Sequence record: DRR378314_109
Direction: 5' to 3' (one strand)
Length of the DNA stretch: 22,898 bases
Shown: piece by piece, positions 11,958 through 22,720 of the stretch
Position numbering within the stretch: position 1 is the first letter of the stretch
How the letters are laid out: each line of letters starts with the position of its first letter
Notes under the pieces: generated by a model
Database searches by the model: none
What the model was told of the DNA's origin: nothing
Seen by the model: only the letters and a program-made list of their open reading frames with translations
Translations under genes and position numbers: made by a program

Positions 11958-13526
11958 TTAGCCGAGGCTTTGCGTCATACCCCGCCCGACAAGATTGATG
12001 TCATCAGGGTTGATAAGGTCAGATCCCGTCCAGCCAGAAAGATCATATTCCCCCATACATTGGGCAACAAAACCTTGCAGGTTGGAGAGATCCCCATTCG
12101 CTGTAGCGTTCAACAAAGTCTCGATGCGAACGTTTTCGTAATTGCCCGCATAGTTGCGTTCATACAGTTCATGCCGGCCACCAAATTCCGTGCCAATCGC
12201 ATCCCATAGCAGTTTCAGCAGCTTCACCCTGTCGATGGCAGCATAACCGTTGGAACCACGCACAAAACGATCAAGATAGGGACGGATCGCCTCGCTTTCG
12301 AAATCCGCCGCCGAGGAGGGCAGATAGATCAGGCCGGACGCCACATGCCGTTCGATCAACTCTTTAATCCGACCATAGGCCATGGGGGCAAAAACCCGAT
12401 AGGCGAGACCGACGTTCGTGTTGGGCAAGTTAAATCCATCCGTGCCCTCCCATGGGACTGGCGATTTGACCATCGCATCAGAAAGCCCATGGAAGAGATT
12501 GCGCCAGGCCAGCACTTCACCCACCGCCGTCTGCACCCCGCGGAAGTCCTTTGATCCGGTGGCTTCGACCGCCATGGAAAACAGACCAGCGATGAAATCA
12601 AGCTTGACCGACAAGCGTGTCAGACCGTGCAGGGTAAAACGCGGCACAAAGCCTGAAGCAGGGAAGAACTGGTTAATCTTGTCCGTGTCCCCATAGACGA
12701 AGATATTCTCCCAAGGGACCAGAACCTTGTCGAACACAAGGATCGAGTCATTCTCATCCATCCGCGAGGAAAGCGGATAGTCAAAGGGAGACCCAGTGGC
12801 GGCCGCATTGAACTCGTAAGAAGAGCGCGCGATCAGCTTGACCCCTTCAGCGTCCATCGGCGCGGTAAAGATCAGCGCAAATTCCTTGTCCTTAACCGGA
12901 ATGCCATAGTGAGCGATAAAGTTGTAATGGGTCAGCGCCGATCCCGTTGCCACGACCTTTGCACCAGAGACGATAAGCCCGGCGTCGGTTTCTTTTTCAA
13001 CATGCATGAATACATCGCGGACCTCTTCAATCGCTCGGTCGCGATCAATAGGCGGATTGACGATAGCGTGGTTCCAGTAATCCAGTTTGTTCTGTGTCTT
13101 GTTGTACCAGTTCAACGCATTGCCGGCATATTCTCCGTAAAACTCTGAGTTGGCGCCCAAAGTACCGAGAAATGCCGCTTTGTAATCCGGCGAGCGGCCC
13201 ATCCAGCCATAGGACACTTTTTGCAGCTCAGCCACGGCATCGCGGCTTTTGATCAGGTCTTCAGATGTCTTGGACCCCAGGAAAAACGGATGTGTGATAT
13301 TGCCCGACCCATTGTCTGCCATCACGCCGATCTGGTCTTTGCGGTCATGAAATTTATCATACCAGCGTGCAACCATACGTGCAGAGTTGCGAAAGGCCGG
13401 ATGTTTGGTGACGTCTTTTACACGTTCGCCATAGATATAGATCTCGCGGCTGTCCTGAATGCTCTCCAAGAACTCTTGGCCTTTGAAAACCTCGGTTTTA
13501 TCGCCGGGCGTTGCATCTTTGGGCAT
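11958..13526 (-). CDS. Two-component FADH2-dependent aromatic monooxygenase, oxygenase subunit (HpaB/PheA1/NphA1 family)
   Basis: [74 protein letters not shown] before ATG 13526. Confidence 0.93.
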
Positions 13527-13606
13527 GGGTCTTTCTCCTCCTGAAAGTGACGAACGGCACAGCGCCGACACGTGCTAATGGCGTTCAAACTGCCCCCGAA
13601 CTCGGC

Positions 13607-13644
13607 AATCGCGCTAGGTATCAACGCATACCAAACGGGGTATC
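13607..13644. promoter_or_regulatory. Possible LysR (CatR/BenM-like) binding region in the divergent promoter
   Basis: ATAC-N8-GTAT at 13628-13643, with GGTATC repeated 22 bp apart (13617, 13639). The canonical spacer is N7, so the match is imperfect. Confidence 0.4.
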
Positions 13645-13709
13645 GCCTGAGAGTGATGGACAGCGTTAACCTGAAAACACCCAGCCAGCTTGAGGAGGAG
13701 CCCGCGGTC

Positions 13710-14285
13710 ATGTTTGATACAACCCAACCCAAATTTTGGCATGGTGAGGTGCCCCGACTTGACGCTAGTGTCGTGACACTTGGTGCATTTGATGGTGTAC
13801 ATTCAGGACATCAGACACTGATATCCGGCGCGATCAAACAGGCGCAGGCACGCGGTGTACCTTCTGTTGTTTGCACTTTTGATCCGCCCCCCAAGGTTTT
13901 TTTTGGTCGCGCTGCCCAGCTATGTTCAATGTCGCAGAAACTTGCGCGTATTTCGGCACTTGGCCCGGATCACGTTGTGGTTTTCTCCTTTGACGAAACT
14001 CTTCGCGCCCTGTCACCTGCCGCTTTTATGGACAAGCTGGCCCTGCTGCGGCCCTACCGAATTTGTGTAGGTGGTGATTTTCGATTTGGGGCGAAACAGG
14101 CGGGTGACGTGCACCTGCTTGGCACCCGCTTTGATGTGCGGGTGCAGCCGCCGGTCTGCTGCGCCGATGGTGAAGTTGTTTCTTCAACCCGCATTCGTGG
14201 CCTGCTGGAGCAGGGCCTGACGACAGCGGCCGCAACACTTTTGCGCCCGGCACTCAAGCCAGAGATTTATCATGAAAACACTTGA
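13710..14285 (+). CDS. Stand-alone FMN adenylyltransferase (FAD synthetase N-terminal domain), no riboflavin kinase domain
   Basis: GAGGAGG RBS. Motifs TLGAFDGVHSGHQ, TFDPPP, VGGDFRFG, VSSTRIR. The ORF ends at 191 aa without the kinase GFPTAN motif. Confidence 0.85.
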   Translation: MFDTTQPKFWHGEVPRLDASVVTLGAFDGVHSGHQTLISGAIKQAQARGVPSVVCTFDPPPKVFFGRAAQLCSMSQKLARISALGPDHVVVFSFDETLRALSPAAFMDKLALLRPYRICVGGDFRFGAKQAGDVHLLGTRFDVRVQPPVCCADGEVVSSTRIRGLLEQGLTTAAATLLRPALKPEIYHENT

Positions 14286-14793
14286 TCCACGCGCCCTGCG
14301 CGATGCCTGCGGTCTGTTCAGTACCGGCGTCAATGTTATTGCCACGCGCCATGAAGATGGTGATCACGGGATGACGGCCAATGCCTTTATGTCAATCTCA
14401 CTCGACCCGCCATTGATCTCGGTCTCAATCGGTGAACGTGCCAAGATCCTGCCTCATCTGCAACGGACCGGGCGCTTTTCAGTCAGCACTCTTGCCGAAG
14501 GCAGTGCGGAGCTTGCCTGGCATTTTGCGGGCCGGCCTGTCGAAAGTCTGACGAACCCCTTCGATGAACTTGACGGCTTGCCCGTGATCCGCAGTGCCTT
14601 GGCCGCTTATGCATGTGACATCGTGAACGAGGTCGAAGCAGGGGATCATACGATTTTCATCGGGCAGGTCAGCCAGTTGATCACAGATCCCGGTGCGCGA
14701 CCGCTTATTTTTTACAAAGGCCGTTTCGGTGCCGTGGCGGCACAAGCCCCCGCGCCGGAACTATGTGATCCAGTCGCTGAAGCCATCTGGTGA
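14272..14793 (+). CDS. Flavin reductase (HpaC/PheA2 family)
   Basis: LRDACGLFSTGVNVI, GMTANAFMSISLDPPL, AGDHTIFIGQV, PLIFYKGRF. Confidence 0.93.
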   Translation: MKTLDPRALRDACGLFSTGVNVIATRHEDGDHGMTANAFMSISLDPPLISVSIGERAKILPHLQRTGRFSVSTLAEGSAELAWHFAGRPVESLTNPFDELDGLPVIRSALAAYACDIVNEVEAGDHTIFIGQVSQLITDPGARPLIFYKGRFGAVAAQAPAPELCDPVAEAIW

Positions 14794-14833: not shown

Positions 14834-15703
14834 ATGAGAAACATCACACTAGAAAACATCACCGATGCCGTCACCGGCGCAATGAAAAAGGACATTCCGG
14901 AACGCAACCGCGAAATCATGACTGCGGCGCTCAAACATTTCCATGCCTTTGTCAAAGAGGTGAACCTGAGCCACAGCGAATGGCTGGAGGGTTGCGAGTG
15001 GATGCGTCGTGCCGGCGATATTTCAAACGAGGCACGAAACGAGTTTATTCTTATTTCCGATATCCTTGGTGTCGAGGTTCTGGTGGATATGCTCGACAAT
15101 AAGGTCACCGACGGTGAAAGTGAAAGCACCGTGCTTGGGCCATTCTATCGTGAAAACCCGCCAGTTCTGTCCAAGGGTGCAAGCATCATCCAGAAGGATT
15201 TCGACAACCAAACCACGGTGCGCGTGTCAGGTCGTGTACTCGACATCGAAGGCAATCCCATTGAAGGCGTGCAAATTGATGTCTGGGAGGACGCACCAAA
15301 CGGGCTGTATGAACAACAGGACCCGGATCAGCCGGACTTTAACCTGCGCGGGCGTTTCCTGACGGATGCGGACGGGAGCTATGAGTTTGTTGGCCTGCGC
15401 CCGGAGCCCTATCCGATCCCCTATGATGGTGCGGCAGGGGAATTGCTGAACTACATGGGGCACCATCCGATGCGTCCGGGGCATATTCATTTCATGATCG
15501 CCAAACCGGGTTACAAAACGTTGATCAGCCAAATCTACGACAGCGAGACGGAATATCTCGACAATGACTCGGTCTTTGCCGTGAAGGAGAGCCTGATCGG
15601 AGAAATGAAAACTGCCCCGGAGGGTGCCGACACCGATCTGGTGATGCAGTTTGACTTTCGATTGAAACCCGACGCCGATGTTCAGGCTGTGGCAGCGGAA
15701 TAA
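14834..15703 (+). CDS. Intradiol ring-cleavage dioxygenase (catechol/hydroxyquinol 1,2-dioxygenase; hydroxyquinol-type signature)
   Basis: GGAGG RBS. EFILISDILG, ESTVLGPFY; iron-ligand motifs GLYEQQ, PYPIP, RPGHIH; DSVFAVKESL. Confidence 0.92.
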   Translation: MRNITLENITDAVTGAMKKDIPERNREIMTAALKHFHAFVKEVNLSHSEWLEGCEWMRRAGDISNEARNEFILISDILGVEVLVDMLDNKVTDGESESTVLGPFYRENPPVLSKGASIIQKDFDNQTTVRVSGRVLDIEGNPIEGVQIDVWEDAPNGLYEQQDPDQPDFNLRGRFLTDADGSYEFVGLRPEPYPIPYDGAAGELLNYMGHHPMRPGHIHFMIAKPGYKTLISQIYDSETEYLDNDSVFAVKESLIGEMKTAPEGADTDLVMQFDFRLKPDADVQAVAAE

Positions 15704-15713
15704 CATGACATTA

Positions 15714-15736
15714 GCGGGCGCCCAATGGGCGTCCGC
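15714..15736 (+). other. GC-rich intercistronic hairpin
   Basis: GCGGGCGCCC-AAT-GGGCGTCCGC (one G-U pair) between the dioxygenase and cycloisomerase genes. No U-tract. Confidence 0.5.
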
Positions 15737-15757
15737 ATCAGATTAAAGGAGAATTTA

Positions 15758-16936
15758 ATGACGCCTCCCGCAGCCGAAATCGCTGAAGCTATATCGTTTG
15801 ACCAGAATCTGACGTGTCAAACTGCGATTCGTGAGATCCGCGCCCAAATCCTCACGCTGCCCAGTATTCGCGCGCACCGCCTGTCAAATACAGAGTTCAC
15901 CAGTCGTGAATTTGTACTGGTTCGGGTGTTACTGGCCAACGGTATCGAAGGTATTGGCGAGGCGGCTGTTTTGGGCGGTCCGCGTTGGGCGGAAGAATCG
16001 GTGGAGTCAATTCAGGCAGCGGTGGAGCGCTATCTTGCGCCAGCGCTGATCGGTTGCCCCGCTGCACGGCCTGCCGAAGTTGCTGCGCGTATGGCCAAGG
16101 CTGCCTTCCGCAACAATTCAGCCAAGGGCGCGGTTGAGACGGCTGTTCTCGACGCGTTCACACGCACGCTTGATGTGCCGCTTGCTACCATGTTTGGCGG
16201 CGCGCAGGTGGACAAGCTGCCGGTGCTTTGGGCGCTGGCATCAGGGGATGCCGATCAGGAGGTGGAGGAAGCACTTGCAAAACTAGCAGCCCGCGAACAC
16301 CGTGATTTTAAGATCAAGCTCGGCTTTGCAAGCCCGGTAGACGACCTGCGCCGCCTGCAAAAGCTACGCGATGAGGTTCCCGAAATGCGCCGCCTGATCG
16401 TCGATGTGAACCAAGCCTGGAGCGAGGCCGACTGCCGCCGTTATTTGCCTGCCCTGCAAGAACTGAAAGTTGATTTGATCGAACAACCACTGCCGGGTGA
16501 TAATTTTGAAGGCATGGCGCGTGTCGCGCGTCAAACCCAGATTCCGCTGATGGTGGACGAGGCCGCCTTTTCCAACCGGGAAATTTCCCGCGCCGGGGCG
16601 ATGGGTTGTGGCAGTGTATACTCGCTGAAACTTGTCAAAAGTGGCGGGCTGCTGGCACTGTCACATGCTGCCCGCGTTGCAGAGGCGGCAGGGTTCGAAC
16701 TTTATGGCGGGTGCTTGCTTGAAGGTTCCATCGGGGCCGCCGCACATCTGTCGGTTTTTGGTACATTACCGCAGCTTGCTTGGGGCTGTGAGCATTTCGG
16801 TCCCCGGCTGCATGTCTCCGAGATCGTCCGCGATCCGCTGGTTTTCGAGGAATTTCATGTGCATGTCCCGCAGGGACCCGGATTGGGCGTCGAGCTTGAC
16901 GAAGACCAGGTGCGCGATGCCTTGCGCCCAGACTGA
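15758..16936 (+). CDS. catB: Muconate/chloromuconate cycloisomerase
   Basis: AAGGAG RBS. Enolase-superfamily MLE motifs FKIKLG, VDVNQ, IEQP, MVDE, SLKL, YGGCLLEG, CEHFGP, GPGLGV. Confidence 0.9.
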   Translation: MTPPAAEIAEAISFDQNLTCQTAIREIRAQILTLPSIRAHRLSNTEFTSREFVLVRVLLANGIEGIGEAAVLGGPRWAEESVESIQAAVERYLAPALIGCPAARPAEVAARMAKAAFRNNSAKGAVETAVLDAFTRTLDVPLATMFGGAQVDKLPVLWALASGDADQEVEEALAKLAAREHRDFKIKLGFASPVDDLRRLQKLRDEVPEMRRLIVDVNQAWSEADCRRYLPALQELKVDLIEQPLPGDNFEGMARVARQTQIPLMVDEAAFSNREISRAGAMGCGSVYSLKLVKSGGLLALSHAARVAEAAGFELYGGCLLEGSIGAAAHLSVFGTLPQLAWGCEHFGPRLHVSEIVRDPLVFEEFHVHVPQGPGLGVELDEDQVRDALRPD

Positions 16937-16986
16937 AACTTGTATTTGCGGGGGGAGAGCCGATGATACTTGACGGGAGGGGACAT

Positions 16987-17889
16987 ATGGACTTCAGGCG
17001 GTTGACCTATTTTGTCGCTGTGGCTGAGGAATTGCATTTCGGCCGTGCGGCCAACCGACTTGGAATTGCGCAACCGCCGCTCAGCCGACAGATCGCCCAA
17101 TTGGAATCCGACCTTGGGGTTCAGCTTTTTGATCGTTCACGCAGTCAGGTCCGGCTCACACAGGCAGGTGAGACATTGCTGTTGCGCGGCGGTGATATTC
17201 TTGCGCAAATCGAGCGGGCGGAACGTGAGGTGCGCTGCATTGGCGAAGGTGCCGCCGGGCGGCTGCGGATCGCTTTTGTCGGCACTGCAAGCTATGGCGT
17301 GCTGCCAGAGCTTATTCGCGAGTTCCGAAGCAGATATCCAGATGTCGAGCTTGCACTTTCGGCAATGAACAATGCCGAGCTGAAGACCGCGCTGATCGCC
17401 CGTCACATCGATGTGGCCTTTGCCCGCCCTGCGATTTTTGACGATGAAATCCGCGTGTTCCCGTTTCATGAAGAACCACTCACACTGGCGGTCCCGGAAA
17501 ATTCCGAACTGGCAGCGCAAGACAGATTGCCGCTAGCAGAACTAAAACGCGAAACTTTCGTACTCTATCCACGCCGCCCGCGGCCCAGTTTTGCCGATCA
17601 TATTCTGGAGATATGTAAGAAAGAGGGATTTATCCCTGCCAAGGAAGTGCTTGCCCAGGACTTTCAGACGGCTATCTCACTTGTATCGGTTGGCGTCGGT
17701 ATCTCTCTGGTCCCCCGTTCCGTTTCGCTTTCCCCGCGTCATGGCGTCGTCTATCGGGCCTATGAAGGATATAATCCGGGCACAACCGTGTCGCTTGCCC
17801 TACGTCAGGACAATCAGGGTGTGCATACCCAGAATTTCGTAACAGTGGCCAAGAGTTTTGCGCGTAAGATCCAAAAGGAAGGTCGCTGA
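16987..17889 (+). CDS. LysR-family transcriptional regulator (CatR/BenM-like)
   Basis: MDFRRLTYFVAVAEELHFGRAANRLGIAQPPLSRQI HTH; YPRRPRPSFADH; GGAGG RBS. Confidence 0.93.
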   Translation: MDFRRLTYFVAVAEELHFGRAANRLGIAQPPLSRQIAQLESDLGVQLFDRSRSQVRLTQAGETLLLRGGDILAQIERAEREVRCIGEGAAGRLRIAFVGTASYGVLPELIREFRSRYPDVELALSAMNNAELKTALIARHIDVAFARPAIFDDEIRVFPFHEEPLTLAVPENSELAAQDRLPLAELKRETFVLYPRRPRPSFADHILEICKKEGFIPAKEVLAQDFQTAISLVSVGVGISLVPRSVSLSPRHGVVYRAYEGYNPGTTVSLALRQDNQGVHTQNFVTVAKSFARKIQKEGR

Positions 17890-17895
17890 GTGCAG

Positions 17896-17930
17896 AATGG
17901 CCGTGGAGCAGGTTATGCTCCACGGCCATT
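17896..17930. terminator. Probable bidirectional terminator between convergent genes
   Basis: Perfect 15-bp stem AATGGCCGTGGAGCA-GGTTA-TGCTCCACGGCCATT. Confidence 0.75.
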
Positions 17931-17945
17931 AAAGGTGACCTGGTA

Positions 17946-18791
17946 TCAGGCTGCGGCTGCCATGCGCCCTAATGCATCAATGAAGAAGGGGCGAAAGCCC
18001 TCCGGGTGCTCACTCATCGGGAAATGCCCCAGTTGATCCATGACAGTCAGGCTTGCACCGGGGATTGCATCAGCTGTCCGTTTCGCATCCTCAGGGGTGC
18101 AGGTCAGATCATAGGCACCAACTAGAATGTGAACTGGCGTCTGCTTTGTCGTGATGCTGCTCAGCCGCCCAACAAGGCTTTCATCCTTGGTATAAAAACT
18201 CAGATCTCCACGAAACACGCCGGGACCACTGCTCATAAACATCCACAAGGTATTCCAGCGTTCCACATCAGGCGCGTAGGGCGAAATATTCGCAGAGACA
18301 AGCGCGGCCCCCATTTCGCCCCCATGGGCATCTGGACGATCGAACCAATCGATATCATACCACGCCGCTTGAAAATCAGAGGCTTCAATCGCAATGAAAC
18401 CGGAAAACCAGTCTGCGTGACGCGCGGCGAGTTGAAGCGCAATTCGCCCCCCCATCGAACACCCCGCAAGGATGGGCCGATCAAGCGCAAGCGCTTCGCA
18501 GACAGCCAGCACCGTTGCGATATAGGTGTCAGTGGTAAGAAGATATTCCTCTTGCTCAAAACCGGCAGGGGGCAGGGATTTCCCGTGCCACGGCATGTCA
18601 AATGCAATGAGACGATGCTCAGACGTCACCTCGGTGTCGTTCAGGAGATGGCGCCATTGACGCGTGTCCGCACCTGCTGTGTGCAGACAAAGAACCGGAC
18701 GCCCAGTGCCTGCTTCTTCGAAATAGATCCGCTGCGTCTGACCTTCGATCTCTACATTGACGTATCTTCCGGTGATGTCCTCGATTGTCAT
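17946..18791 (-). CDS. Alpha/beta-fold hydrolase
   Basis: LCLHTAG, FDMPWHGKS, nucleophile elbow GCSMGG, GAYD, GHFP. ATGA overlap with the upstream gene. Confidence 0.9.
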   Translation of the reverse strand: MTIEDITGRYVNVEIEGQTQRIYFEEAGTGRPVLCLHTAGADTRQWRHLLNDTEVTSEHRLIAFDMPWHGKSLPPAGFEQEEYLLTTDTYIATVLAVCEALALDRPILAGCSMGGRIALQLAARHADWFSGFIAIEASDFQAAWYDIDWFDRPDAHGGEMGAALVSANISPYAPDVERWNTLWMFMSSGPGVFRGDLSFYTKDESLVGRLSSITTKQTPVHILVGAYDLTCTPEDAKRTADAIPGASLTVMDQLGHFPMSEHPEGFRPFFIDALGRMAAAA

Positions 18792-19162
18792 GCGGCACCC
18801 CCTTCACGGCCAAGTGCAAGAAATTCTTTGAAAAACCGCAGATTCTTGACCAGTGACAGGATATCGCCGTCAATGTTTGCCCGACCGATTTTGACAAGGC
18901 CAAAAATATCATGAAACCCGGGGGCAGGGCGCGATGCCCAGAAAGCCTCAAGCGCTTCCGCGTCTGTTCTGATGGCAAACCGCCATGGGGTCTTTCGGCT
19001 TGGCCCGGGTTCTATATTTGCCAGCTCACCCTTTTCAAAATGAAGATAGAATTCCTTTGCATCCACCTGCAGTAGAACCGTCTCTGAAAATAATCGCCCA
19101 AGCCGGGTCAGCTGCGGGGACTTGCCGAGCGCCGATTGCATGGTTTCTATTTTCTCAAGCAC
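18788..19162 (-). CDS. Small hypothetical protein, possibly SCP2 (sterol carrier)-like fold
   Basis: AAGGAG 6 nt before GTG 19162 (ATG 19168 is an alternative). Beta-rich N-part and C-terminal GRANIDGDILSLVKNL, resembling the SCP2 G-x-x-x-I-x-G-D pattern. Stop overlaps the hydrolase start. Confidence 0.7.
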   Translation of the reverse strand: MLEKIETMQSALGKSPQLTRLGRLFSETVLLQVDAKEFYLHFEKGELANIEPGPSRKTPWRFAIRTDAEALEAFWASRPAPGFHDIFGLVKIGRANIDGDILSLVKNLRFFKEFLALGREGGAA

Positions 19163-19271
19163 ATCCATCTCCTTTGTTCGAACTGATGGACATGATCGCG
19201 TCAGAAGCTTCACGCGGCAATGGTGGCACCGGTATCGCGCAATACCGTTCCGATCGCGCAAGGGTTCCTTT

Positions 19272-20033
19272 TCACGCCAGGACGCGCATCAAACCTGCCT
19301 GTGCTTGCAGGAGCGGCCCGGCAAACTGCGTGTGCAAGGCCGTGGCGGAATCCTGTGTGGCGGCTACGCCTGTGTTCAATGCGGCAACAACCTGACCGTG
19401 CAGGTTTTTAAGCGGCACAGCAATCGAGCGCAGGCCAAGTTCGACTTCCTGATCATTGATTGCAAAACCATTTGTTCGGACAACGGCCAGTTCATCCATG
19501 ATTTCGCCCGGCGCAGTCAGACTGTAGGGTGTTCTGGGTGACAAATCCGAACGTTCGATCAATGCGCGGGCCTCTGCTTCCGGCAACGCCGCCAAAAGGA
19601 CCCGCCCCATAGATGTACAATGGGCGGGCAGGCGTGACCCCGGCATCAACCCGATGGACATGACCCGGCGCTGCGCCGCACGGGCGAGATAGACAATCTC
19701 TGTTTCATCAAGGATCGAGACGGAAGTAGATTCATTGATTTGCTCGGAAAGTTGATCAAGCCAGGGCTGTACCAGCTGCGGAAGGGGCAAAGCGGCAAGG
19801 GCCCCCATGCCAAGCCGCAAGATGCGCGGAGTCACGGTAAAGAACTTACCGTCATATTCGGCATAACCCAGTTGGTGGAGCGTTAGCAGACAACGGCGCG
19901 CACTGGCCCGGTCAAACCCGGTGCGCTGTGCAACATCGGTAATGGTCAGCCGCGGTGTCTGCGCGCCAAAACACTCGATAACCTGAAGCCCTTTTGCGAG
20001 GGAGGCGATAAAATTGGTTGGTTTGTTCACCAT
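19272..20033 (-). CDS. pcaR: IclR-family regulator of the beta-ketoadipate pathway
   Basis: FIASLAKGLQVIECF, ARRCLLTL, GSRLPAHCTSMGRVLL, DQEVELGLRSIAVP. Divergent from pcaIJF. Confidence 0.88.
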   Translation of the reverse strand: MVNKPTNFIASLAKGLQVIECFGAQTPRLTITDVAQRTGFDRASARRCLLTLHQLGYAEYDGKFFTVTPRILRLGMGALAALPLPQLVQPWLDQLSEQINESTSVSILDETEIVYLARAAQRRVMSIGLMPGSRLPAHCTSMGRVLLAALPEAEARALIERSDLSPRTPYSLTAPGEIMDELAVVRTNGFAINDQEVELGLRSIAVPLKNLHGQVVAALNTGVAATQDSATALHTQFAGPLLQAQAGLMRVLA

Positions 20034-20069
20034 GCGCACAAGGTATGGCGCAATATGAACAAAGGTCAA
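20022..20069. promoter_or_regulatory. Paired PcaR-type operators and candidate pcaR promoter
   Basis: TTTGTTCACCATGCGCACAA (20022-20041) and an inverted copy TTTGTTCATATTGCGC (20048-20063, minus strand). Both resemble GTNCG-N5-CGNAC. Minus strand also has TTGACC-N18-TACCTT. Confidence 0.7.
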
Positions 20070-20136
20070 TATATGCACGGAGTTTGTAGCAATGTCCGAA
20101 ATGACCCGTTACCCGATATCGCAGGAGGATTTGGAT

Positions 20137-20844
20137 ATGGTTAAAACCGTTACGACCCCGAGCGAGGTCATTCAGCAGATTCCAGACGGGGCAACCGTCA
20201 TGATCGGAGGATTTGGCGGTTCTGGCGCGCCGATTGAGCTGATCCATGCATTGATTGATCACGGTGCAAAACACCTGACAGTGGTAAACAACAATGCTGG
20301 CAACGGACATGTTGGGCTTGCCGCATTGATTGAACAGGGGCAGGTGGACAAGCTGATCTGTTCTTTCCCGCGTTCCGCTGATCCCAGTGTGTTTGTTGCG
20401 GCATATAAGGCAAACAAGATCGCGTTGGAAATTGTCCCCCAAGGTACACTTGCCGAACGCATCAGGGCAGGGGGGGCGGGCATTCCCGCCTTCTATACGC
20501 CGACCGCCTTTGGCACCGAAGTGGCTGAGGGAAAACCAGTCGAGGTTTTTGAAGGACGTTCCTATATCCGCGAACTTTGGTTGAAAGCGGATTACGCGCT
20601 TATCAAAGGGAATCTCAGTGACACCCATGGCAATATTACATACCGGATGGCCGCACGGAATTTTAATCCAATCATGGCCACCGCAGCCAAGGTGACCATC
20701 GCGCAAGTCTCGCGCGTGGTGCAGGCCGGGGCCATCGACCCTGAACACGTGGTGACCCCCGGGATTTTTATCAATCACCTCGTGGAGATAACACATCCCG
20801 CACAGGAAGAAGAGCTGAACCGAGCGGAGGCCGTTTACCCATGA
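20137..20844 (+). CDS. pcaI: 3-oxoadipate CoA-transferase subunit A
   Basis: IGGFGGSGAP, NNNAGNG, PQGTLAERIRAGGAGIPAFYTPT, ARNFNP. AGGAGG RBS. Confidence 0.92.
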   Translation: MVKTVTTPSEVIQQIPDGATVMIGGFGGSGAPIELIHALIDHGAKHLTVVNNNAGNGHVGLAALIEQGQVDKLICSFPRSADPSVFVAAYKANKIALEIVPQGTLAERIRAGGAGIPAFYTPTAFGTEVAEGKPVEVFEGRSYIRELWLKADYALIKGNLSDTHGNITYRMAARNFNPIMATAAKVTIAQVSRVVQAGAIDPEHVVTPGIFINHLVEITHPAQEEELNRAEAVYP

Positions 20845-21530
20845 TCGATATTTCAGAAATCAAACTATCGAATGCGCAGATCGCCTGGCGGGCAGCACAG
20901 GATATTCAGGACGGTGCCTATGTGAACCTTGGTATCGGCTTTCCTGAAATGGTGGCCTCTTATCAACCCGAAGGCAAGGAGGTGATCTTTCACACCGAAA
21001 ACGGCGTGTTGGGCTTTGGCGCGGCACCTGCTGTGGGCGAAGAAGACTGGGATCTGATCAACGCAGGCAAGAAAGCGATCACACAGAAACCGGGCACTTC
21101 CTTTTTCCACCACGCTGACAGTTTCGCCATGGTCCGCGGGGGGCATCTTGATGTGGCGATACTAGGCGCATATCAAATTGCTCAGAACGGCGATCTGGCC
21201 AATTGGTCTACTGGTAAAGGCGGTATTCCGGCGGTCGGGGGGGCTATGGACCTTGTACAATCAGCCAAGCGCGTTGCAGTGGTCACCGACCACATCACGA
21301 AAAAAGGTGAGCCCAAACTGGTAGAAAGCTGCACCATGCCGCTGACGGGGGTGGCCTGTGTCACCCGCATTTACAGCTCGCTGGCGGTGATCGACGTAGA
21401 GGACGGCCATTTTGTGCTGCGTGAAAAAATTGCCGCTTTATCCTTTGACGACTTACAGGCCCTGACCGGAGCCGAACTTCTCACAACCAAGGGTGTGGAT
21501 GCCCTGATTTGCCCGGAGGCCCTCGCATGA
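20841..21530 (+). CDS. pcaJ: 3-oxoadipate CoA-transferase subunit B
   Basis: YVNLGIGFP, catalytic HTENG, RGGHLDVAILGA, GGAMDL. ATGA overlap with pcaI. Confidence 0.92.
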   Translation: MIDISEIKLSNAQIAWRAAQDIQDGAYVNLGIGFPEMVASYQPEGKEVIFHTENGVLGFGAAPAVGEEDWDLINAGKKAITQKPGTSFFHHADSFAMVRGGHLDVAILGAYQIAQNGDLANWSTGKGGIPAVGGAMDLVQSAKRVAVVTDHITKKGEPKLVESCTMPLTGVACVTRIYSSLAVIDVEDGHFVLREKIAALSFDDLQALTGAELLTTKGVDALICPEALA

Positions 21531-22720
21531 ACGATGTATTTATCTGTGACTATGTCCGAACCCCCATTGGACGTTATGGCGGCAATCTGGCAAGCGTGCG
21601 CGCTGACGATCTGGGGGCGATCCCGATAAAGGCACTGATCGACAGGCATGATATCGACTGGTCTGCCATTGATGAAGTTTTCTATGGTTGCGCAAATCAG
21701 GCCGGCGAGGACAACCGCAATGTTGCACGCATGTCGGCATTGCTGGCCGGACTGCCTGACAGTGTTCCGGGTACGACACTGAACCGGCTTTGCGGGTCGG
21801 GCATGGATGCAGTGATCACAGCGGCCCGTGCCATCCGTTCGGGTGAGATCCAGTTGGCGATTGCGGGTGGTGTCGAAAGCATGAGCCGTGCGCCATTTGT
21901 CATGCCCAAGGCAGAAACCGCCTTTTCCCGAAGCAATGCAGTCTATGACACCACCATCGGCTGGCGGTTCGTTAACCGGATCATGCAAGCGCAATATGGC
22001 GTGGATTCAATGCCTGAAACCGCCGAAAACGTGGCCGAAGAATTCAACATCTCCCGCGCGGATCAGGATCACTTTGCGCTTCGATCCCAAAGCAAAGCCG
22101 CAGCAGCACAGAGCAGCGGGCGACTTTCAAAAGAGATCACCCCGGTCACGATCCCCCAACGCAAGGGCGATCCACTCGTCATCGAACTGGATGAACACCC
22201 GCGTGCTACCACGCCCGAGGCCCTCGGAAAACTCAAGACCTTTGTTAAGGCAGAGGGGACCGTGACAGCAGGCAACGCATCGGGTGTCAACGACGGTGCC
22301 GCGGCACTGATCCTTGCCTCCGAAGCTGCGGTAAAGGCCCACGGTCTTATCCCGCTTGCCCGCGTGCTTGGTGGAGCAAGCGCCGGCGTGCCGCCGCGGA
22401 TTATGGGAATTGGCCCGGCACCTGCCACAAAAAAATTGATGCACCGCCTCAGTCTGACATCAGACGATTTCGCATCAATCGAATTGAATGAAGCCTTTGC
22501 CAGTCAGGGCCTTGCGACACTGCGACAGCTGGGCATCGCGGACGATGATCCGCGCGTGAACCCCAATGGTGGCGCAATTGCTCTGGGACATCCCTTGGGC
22601 ATGTCAGGCGCAAGGATTACCGGCACGACAATCTTTGATCTGAAATCAGGAGAGAAAAGTCTCTCGACCATGTGCATCGGTGTCGGACAGGGGATTGCCA
22701 TAGCATTGGAGCGGATTTGA
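21527..22720 (+). CDS. pcaF: 3-oxoadipyl-CoA thiolase
   Basis: [42 protein letters not shown] overlap with pcaJ. Confidence 0.93.

Follow-up and report, generated by a model that had tools for sequence, protein, structure and literature searches.

The stretch of DNA analysed here, from sequence record DRR378314_109 (22,898 nucleotides; hereafter the window), carries two coupled genes between the cat and pca genes of a catechol-degradation cluster. They encode an alpha/beta hydrolase and a small protein with a predicted SCP2 fold. We propose that in the subfamily linked to cat genes the two proteins form one heteromeric enzyme that converts muconolactone and water to 3-oxoadipate, and we put the probability of this reading at about 0.6. 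The earlier note on this stretch had suggested the same conversion. The support for it is computational throughout, namely gene linkage, genome distribution, gene fusions and a model of the complex, and from these we infer the substrate, the product and the chemistry. The elements of the pair are as follows.

17946..18791, minus strand: alpha/beta hydrolase gene, an open reading frame (ORF) of 281 amino acids
18788..19168, minus strand: gene of the small protein with the predicted SCP2 fold, an ORF of 126 amino acids from ATG 19168 or 124 amino acids from GTG 19162
18788..18791, minus strand: ATGA stop/start overlap coupling the small gene to the hydrolase gene (tcat on the plus strand)

The catechol branch of the beta-ketoadipate pathway is present in the window, with catA, catB, CoA-transferase, thiolase and regulator genes together. 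The pair is located between catA-catB-LysR and pcaR-pcaIJF. A hidden Markov model (HMM) built from 10 CatC sequences of related genomes was run against the six-frame translation of the window. The best E was 1.2, which agrees with the earlier note that the cluster has no catC. No protein of the window reached the cut-off of PcaD (TIGR02427); the hydrolase of the pair scored 70.1 bits versus 255.85. Judged by sequence, nothing in the window except the pair can fill the catC gap.

The genome tests were made on the genomes of relatives, in addition to the catC search of the window itself. Five genomes holding the pair were searched. None contained catC (PF02426), and all five contained catB and a canonical pcaD. 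The sample was then 301 genomes of the family, with the small protein called at E<=1e-46 and catB called above its cut-off. The small protein was present in 18 genomes and catB in 18, and 16 had both (16/2/2/281; one-sided Fisher p 1.6e-22, kinship ignored). Fifteen of the 18 catB genomes had the pair without an MIase hit, two had catC directly beside catB without the pair, one had both, and none had neither. All 18 therefore had the pair or catC, which is the profile that the earlier note predicted, and catC was missing from 15 of the 16 genomes with both pair and catB. In the single genome with pair and catC, each adjoins its own catB. A class-wide sample of 351 genomes contained four with catB: two had the pair without catC, one had an adjacent catC, and one had neither.

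One strain with the pair is reported to grow on benzoate. According to PMC9873259, Sulfitobacter sp. D7 uses benzoate as sole carbon source and carries the genes for this on a plasmid, from which they are expressed in algal medium. The same paper reports the strain as lacking catC, and reports a hole at catC in roseobacter pathway reconstructions. On the D7 plasmid we found the order catB-benABCD-ABC transporter-LysR-dioxygenase (catA), with the small protein and an 'alpha/beta hydrolase' encoded divergently. The small protein, annotated there as 'hypothetical protein', is 69% identical to that of the window. As D7 grows on benzoate and has the pair without catC, at least one such strain runs the pathway. 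The hole at catC also means that automated tools score the catechol branch as incomplete.

CatC (EC 5.3.3.4; PF02426 MIase) performs a step that is proposed for the pair, its place is between CatB and the lactonase, and among catB genomes its distribution complements that of the pair. It is a small oligomer with a ferredoxin-like fold. The small protein has no sequence relation to it and did not match the PF02426 profile, and its model is SCP2-like rather than of the CatC type. CatC also acts without a bound hydrolase, unlike the proposed pair.

Related loci were collected as the best 80 of 211 confirmed places in contigs of one genome per species. Their pairs are at least 64% identical to that of the window, and only homologues of named genes were sought. 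The hydrolase gene follows the small gene in 79 of the 80 loci, and the exception is on a 2-kb contig. The two genes overlap by 4 nt in 73 of 76 measurable loci and by 10–11 nt in the remaining three. A catA homologue is beside the pair in 74 loci, and a LysR regulator homologue is present in 71. The earlier note had expected such linkage to cat and pca genes. It was found for the pairs of at least 64% identity and not for distant pairs of 28–40% identity. catB was in the stored flanks of 28/80 loci, or 19/41 when the full 10-kb flanks were available. The CatC HMM gave no hit at E<=1e-3 in the stored flanks (<=10 kb) of the 80 loci.

Other parts of these clusters varied. benA to benD were found in 30–43 of the 80 loci and an HpaB-type module in nine. 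The 3-oxoadipate:acetyl-CoA acetyltransferase (NF053568) was found in 45 and pcaF in one. A typical roseobacter cluster (L056) has the order catB-benABCD-LysR-catA, with small protein-hydrolase-acetyltransferase-CoA-transferase-benE running divergently. The constant partner of the pair is thus the central catechol-cleavage (catA) section, and the feeders and the lower pathway vary, which argues against an upstream role as an ester hydrolase. The pair is often plasmid-borne (42 plasmid records). Median identities to the window proteins were 80% for the hydrolase, 69% for the small protein, 60% for catA and 40% for catB.

Several further features of these loci were observed. The acetyltransferase of L056 (L056:11469-13653) matches NF053568 with 500 bits. 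In most related clusters this acetyltransferase and, where seen, a CoA-transferase pair (A in 19/80, B in 15/80) replace pcaIJ-pcaF, so the lower pathway is unlike that of the window. The window catB is about 39% identical to catB of most pair-bearing loci (L006-L080), while the pair itself is 69–80% identical, indicating that the pair has been combined with two different catB lineages. One assembly, that of Tropicibacter sp. S64, has three contigs (L024, L027, L030) on which the small gene, identical each time, is accompanied by catA and the hydrolase gene. These copies are either a multi-copy element or an assembly duplication.

Gene fusions indicated that the two proteins belong together. 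Five longer relatives of the small protein (408–460 amino acids) were found, and all five contain a hydrolase domain. In P0185 (424 amino acids), the SCP2-like part covers residues 7–120 and the hydrolase 171–403, and P0224 is fused likewise. In P0147 and P0170 the hydrolase match is below the Pfam cut-off. P0277 (427 amino acids) is 60% identical to the small protein over residues 10–132 and 67% identical to the hydrolase over residues 146–425. Many matches in the class-wide sample were open frames of 420–460 amino acids, in agreement with the fusions.

The complex of the two proteins was also modeled. The model scored 0.67, and the best of three controls scored 0.00. Of 78 solved complexes, 51 reached this mark, as did two of 108 mismatched pairs. 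At least 87% of the contacts agreed between runs, and the partner pLDDT was at least 87. The model, which the earlier note had called for, supports binding of the small protein to the hydrolase. The predicted interface involves residues 80–90, 93 and 104–114 of the small protein and residues 144, 154–171, 179, 182, 226, 227 and 229 of the hydrolase. It includes the best-conserved residues of the small-protein family (P81, P83, G84, H86, D87, F89, L110, and K114). On the hydrolase side it consists of the lid (144–182) and the loop carrying the catalytic D228. The interface includes the segment of the lid that was modeled least confidently in the monomer (141–160).

The small protein did not match any family in Pfam or NCBIfam, and its family profile found nothing meaningful in the PDB by sequence (best E 0.31). 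Its 3D structure was modeled using AlphaFold2 with a pLDDT of 95.3 and a pTM of 0.87. The model has a five-stranded sheet packed by N- and C-terminal helices, which is the SCP2 fold. In a Foldseek search of the PDB, the best 41 ranked matches were all of SCP2 fold, 29 of them at E<=0.001. The top matches were UbiJ-SCP2 6h6p (E 1.2e-5), 1wfr, Thermus SCP2 2cx7 (TMq 0.72) and 3bn8, and further matches included AF1534, C-terminal domains of alkylsulfatases and human SCP2. The Pfam SCP2 profile (PF02036) gave nothing at E<=1 for the small protein, and six of 50 relatives matched it weakly (best E 0.0049). A six-frame PF02036 search of the five genomes detected other SCP2 genes and not the small gene of the pair. 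In an hhalign comparison of the small-protein family with seven bona fide SCP2 proteins, the alignment was statistically weak (probability 3.75%, E 0.011), colinear over 90 columns, and the G-x-x-x-(I/V)-(D/E)-G-D motifs lined up. As a lead only, the nearest named cluster in the ESM Atlas (score 0.90) is annotated as SCP2 in 43% of its members. Based on the model, the small protein has the SCP2 fold, and by profile search it is not a member of the Pfam SCP2 family. The description in the earlier note, an SCP2-like protein of about 124 residues, thus holds for the fold, is probable for the length and has no backing from the Pfam profile.

The conserved residues of the small protein are the P81-x-P-G-F-H86-D87 motif, K114, and R121. 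More than 1000 homologues were found, mostly in Rhodobacterales, and they are named only 'hypothetical' or 'SCP2 domain-containing'. UbiJ/UbiT and the C-terminal domain of the alkylsulfatases SdsA1/Pisa1 share the fold (Foldseek E 1.2e-5 to 5e-3). In the alkylsulfatases the SCP2 domain is attached to a hydrolytic catalytic domain, comparable with the small protein and its hydrolase. A difference is that these modules bind long hydrophobic ligands, whereas a small dicarboxylic lactone is proposed as the substrate of the pair. The P-x-P-G-F-H-D motif sets the small-protein family of the pair apart.

The hydrolase matches Abhydrolase_1 with 63.5 bits (cut-off 25.8). Its triad consists of the nucleophile S112, in G-C-S-M-G-G, with D228 and H256. 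An alignment was made of 77 cat-linked hydrolases, 13 partners of distant small proteins and six canonical PcaD proteins. The three triad residues were invariant in all three sets. The HTAG loop pointed out in the earlier note is residues H37-T38-A39-G40, and it was invariant in 77/77 cat-linked and 13/13 distant partner hydrolases. PcaD proteins mostly have N-S-L-G at this position (N and S in 5/6, L and G in 6/6). The triad and 56 invariant columns were kept across the whole family.

The best named NCBIfam relatives of the hydrolase are enol-lactonases, NF051488 with 77.4 bits (cut-off 390) and TIGR02427 with the score given above. Source records name the homologues generically as 'pimeloyl-ACP methyl ester carboxylesterase' or 'alpha/beta hydrolase'. 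The AlphaFold2 model of the hydrolase had a pLDDT of 90.9. The nearest solved folds were the Thermogutta esterase 4uhc (E 1.9e-20) and then the PcaD enol-lactonase 2xua (E 7.6e-20), both with TMq 0.78–0.79, and the next matches were C-C hydrolases.

PcaD/CatD (EC 3.1.1.24) is an alpha/beta hydrolase with the same Ser-Asp-His triad. The superposition with 2xua has an rmsd of 2.6–3.1, and the cap residues W149, R178, and W183 are common to both. The differences are that sequence identity is 19%, that HTAG replaces N-S-L-G, and that the hydrolase of the pair has an obligate SCP2-fold partner or fused domain, whereas PcaD is encoded separately in the same genomes. PcaL/PcaDC (NF051488, NF051487), a fusion of enol-lactonase and 4-carboxymuconolactone decarboxylase (CMD), is a precedent for joining a lactonase to an enzyme that makes the enol-lactone. 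Only the hydrolase part of NF051488 aligns, and no CMD domain is present. The partner in PcaL/PcaDC is a CMD-family decarboxylase of the protocatechuate branch, whereas the partner in the pair has the SCP2 fold. The meta-cleavage-product C-C hydrolases (BphD, MhpC, and DxnB2) share the fold of the hydrolase and are among its nearest structures. They combine substrate tautomerisation and hydrolysis in one active site. They differ from the pair in substrates and in the bond cleaved, their similarity is weak (37 bits versus a BphD cut-off of 462), and they have no SCP2 partner.

The proposed reaction would comprise two steps. In the first, a double-bond shift would convert muconolactone to 3-oxoadipate enol-lactone, a step normally catalyzed by CatC. 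In the second, the ring of the enol-lactone would be hydrolysed to 3-oxoadipate, normally the task of CatD/PcaD. Two versions were considered, and each is put forward tentatively. The hydrolase might perform both steps while the SCP2-fold subunit closes and shapes the pocket. Its histidine would then shift the proton, by analogy with the tautomerising C-C hydrolases of the same fold, and the role of the partner would resemble that of the SCP2 domain of alkylsulfatases. Two points speak for this version: the matched SCP2 structures are all carrier or accessory modules, and hydrolases of this fold can tautomerise substrates. The alternative, just as tentative, is that the base for the 1,3-proton shift would come from the SCP2-fold subunit, D87 or H86 being the candidate residue, and that the labile enol-lactone would stay in the complex until its hydrolysis. 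A catalytic small subunit is equally possible because the invariant H86-D87 is at the predicted interface beside the catalytic loop and because of the analogy with PcaL.

The pair might instead contribute a single known step. The hydrolase would be a cluster-specific enol-lactonase analogous to CatD, with the partner serving stability or substrate binding, and the isomerase would be another protein or a side activity of the CatB or PcaC type. Enol-lactonases are indeed the best named relatives of the hydrolase, none of the matched SCP2-fold structures is annotated as an enzyme in its own right, and some bacteria, Acinetobacter among them, have catD and pcaD as two distinct genes. However, this offers no explanation for the missing catC of 15 of the 18 catB genomes and of the benzoate-growing strain. 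No other conserved unassigned gene recurs in the two family-annotated loci (L056 and L035), and Pseudomonas catC mutants fail on benzoate despite having pcaC. We consider this explanation improbable. A different substrate was weighed as well. The pair could act on methyl- or chloro-muconolactone, dienelactone, protoanemonin or another lactone or ester, as a side-product or detoxification enzyme. The chlorocatechol dioxygenase model scores catA slightly better than the catechol models do, below every cut-off, and the wider family occurs in many contexts, once beside a dienelactone hydrolase. But searches of the window and of the two ben-type loci annotated by family detected neither maleylacetate reductase nor dienelactone hydrolase, benABCD (30–43/80 loci) yields plain catechol, and the either-or pattern with catC would have no explanation. 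A substrate of this kind is therefore unlikely.

A role without catalysis, as a carrier or sensor pair or as a passenger module travelling with catA on plasmids, seems very remote. It would fit the many plasmid records and the conservation of the pair, which is higher than that of its neighbors (median 80%/69% versus 60% for catA and 40% for catB). It does not fit the family-wide retention of S112/D228/H256 and the 56 invariant columns; selection for an enzyme is suggested by the translational coupling and the fusions, and the association with catB is genome-wide, not only local.

Several observations weigh against a heteromeric muconolactone-converting enzyme. Canonical pcaD is present in 5/5 of the relatives' genomes, which amends the reading of the earlier note. 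A second lactonase is thus not strictly required there, only the isomerase is truly missing, and the hydrolase would be a cluster-specific counterpart of catD. In two of the 18 genomes with the pair, catB was not recognisable even with the threshold at E 1e-15. One catB genome of the class-wide sample has neither catC nor the pair; its catB is 2.5 kb from a contig start. Fifteen of the 301 genomes have MIase-family hits and no catB above the cut-off, so the presence of MIase is not tied to catB alone. Examples are G064, G099, G135, G136, and G192, and six of the fifteen match MIase at E 1e-33 to 1e-37. The sampled genomes are related to one another and many are drafts, and the counts are not independent events. 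The absence of catC covers the window and the relatives; the window's own genome may carry catC elsewhere. Six of the 80 loci have no catA in the stored flanks. The complex was folded without alignments, and seven of 44 blind neighboring gene pairs also passed in calibration. None of the SCP2-fold structures matched by Foldseek is annotated as an enzyme in its own right, and no SCP2-fold protein is known to have catalytic activity. Finally, the distant pairs (28–40% identity) are not linked to cat genes, which limits the proposed function to one subfamily, and the contexts of the wider family are unrelated (SDRs, B12 mutase, CoA-transferases, and aldehyde dehydrogenases), so function is not transferable from relatives.

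The wider family was searched with HMMER against 1.84 billion representatives. This gave 306 clusters at E<=0.001, down to about 25–40% identity. The family profile was found in 39 of the 351 alphaproteobacterial genomes and also in Rhodococcus and Peribacillus, as fused or paired proteins. In a quick tree, 81 cat-linked sequences, including that of the window, were parted from 23 others by a branch of 3.3 (SH-aLRT 100). As the 80 loci had been picked as best matches, only the gap in the tree is informative. Twenty loci of the class-wide sample contained four SDRs, two 3-hydroxyisobutyrate-dehydrogenase-like genes, a B12 mutase, CoA-transferases, an old yellow enzyme and one dienelactone hydrolase, and no neighbor recurred in more than four of the 20. 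One distant member (L118) is in the context of a B12 acyl-CoA mutase operon.

In four of five distant plasmid loci, a succinate-semialdehyde or aldehyde dehydrogenase gene directly follows the pair. These four are from Rhodococcus (two), Peribacillus and Agrobacterium; the locus from Martelella has none. The plasmid pairs in L082, L083, L084, and L086 (28–37% identity) and the dehydrogenase form a triad kept across three phyla. It rests on few lineages, because 14 of the 19 distant plasmid hits are from Rhodococcus. By analogy, the wider family may share a chemistry in which an alpha,beta-unsaturated gamma-lactone would be converted via an enol-lactone to a 4-oxo acid. The triad suggested to us that this might be butenolide to succinate semialdehyde in the dehydrogenase-linked clade and muconolactone to 3-oxoadipate in the cat-linked clade. 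The cat-linked clade has basic K59, R80, and K108 where distant members have M, V, and A/Q. It is speculation that these residues suit the extra carboxylate of muconolactone. It is possible, if doubtful, that the whole family is of one chemistry, a composite-site isomerising lactonase whose SCP2-fold subunit would be catalytic via H86-D87 at the mouth of the hydrolase pocket.

Few catabolic routes have been studied as well as the beta-ketoadipate pathway, in which catC is regarded as indispensable. Roseobacter-group bacteria rank among the main marine consumers of aromatics derived from algae and lignin. Full-text searches of a library without subscription journals and supplements found no account of the pair, of another muconolactone isomerase in place of CatC or of a hydrolase with an SCP2 partner. 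We rate the proposal as a pathway variant built on an uncharacterised enzyme family. If it is true, it would be a non-homologous replacement inside a textbook pathway. It would give a function to the more than 1000 'hypothetical' proteins and their generically named hydrolases, and would open a wider, unstudied family of SCP2-partnered hydrolases. If the SCP2-fold subunit is catalytic, this would be the first enzymatic role for the SCP2 fold. A one-complex route from muconolactone to 3-oxoadipate could also interest engineers of beta-ketoadipate or muconate production.

The start of the small gene was examined next to its homologues. The minus strand reads AAGGAG-ATG-GAT-GTG at the 5' end of the gene. 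The Shine-Dalgarno-like AGGAG (19169-19173) is 0 nt before ATG 19168 and 6 nt before GTG 19162, and most homologues have 124 amino acids and align from the position of GTG 19162. For these two reasons the true start is probably GTG 19162, with a product of 124 amino acids. A promoter and terminator scan of 17800-20200 found nothing exceeding shuffled controls. Between the convergent LysR and hydrolase genes, which are 56 nt apart, is a perfect inverted repeat whose 14-bp arms (17896-17909 / 17917-17930) flank a 7-nt loop. From its sequence, the repeat (17896-17930) is likely a two-way terminator. It has no T run and was therefore not listed by the terminator scan. In runs labelled as RNA, short contigs at a depth of 2–5 were within the hydrolase gene, from X19 (17922-18072 and 18166-18316) and X18 (RNA by guess; 18622-18792). 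No contig of these runs spans both genes of the pair by 31 letters, DNA carry-over is possible, and the expression data weigh neither way.

The other genes of the cluster in the window are as follows.

11958-13571, minus strand: HpaB-type oxygenase, by family search
13572-14285, plus strand: stand-alone FAD-synthetase-like domain protein of 237 amino acids, with only the FMN-adenylyltransferase (FAD_syn) domain of RibF
14272-14793: flavin reductase, by family search
14834..15703, plus strand: intradiol (catechol 1,2-) dioxygenase, catA-like, with Dioxygenase_C and Dioxygenase_N domains
15725..16936, plus strand: muconate cycloisomerase catB (TIGR02534, 383.9 bits versus a cut-off of 334.95)
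16963..17889, plus strand: LysR-type regulator of the CatM/BenM kind, convergent with the hydrolase gene
19272..20078, minus strand: PcaR/PcaU-type IclR regulator (TIGR02431, 321 bits versus a cut-off of 285), co-directional with the pair and 103 nt upstream of it
20092..21530, plus strand: 3-oxoadipate CoA-transferase subunits A and B, pcaIJ (TIGR02429 and TIGR02428, both above their cut-offs)
21509..22720, plus strand: 3-oxoadipyl-CoA thiolase pcaF (TIGR02430, 669.5 bits versus a cut-off of 597)

The assignments from the HpaB type to PcaF agree with the route from phenol to succinyl-CoA and acetyl-CoA that the earlier note had read from the cluster. The window catB, pcaIJ, pcaF, and pcaR are all above curated cut-offs, and catA is below every NCBIfam equivalog cut-off. 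For catA of the window and of its relatives, the chlorocatechol dioxygenase model was slightly ahead of the catechol models, all below cut-offs. A chlorocatechol or hydroxyquinol route was rejected for the window because maleylacetate reductase and dienelactone hydrolase were not found in it.

The first 11.9 kb of the window contained no pathway genes, only regulators, an ABC transporter, an MBL-fold protein, SurE, a Na/Pi transporter and two Pfam-less ORFs. The latter are adjacent on the plus strand, 936-1613 (225 amino acids) and 1626-2831 (401 amino acids), and match no Pfam family. By sequence, the module at 11958..14793 (HpaB-type oxygenase, FAD-synthetase-like protein and flavin reductase) is probably a feeder that converts phenol to catechol. 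The FAD_syn-only protein (13572-14285) sits between the HpaB-type oxygenase and its flavin reductase, and homologues of it are present in all nine related loci with the HpaB module. Its role may be to supply FAD specifically to the monooxygenase.

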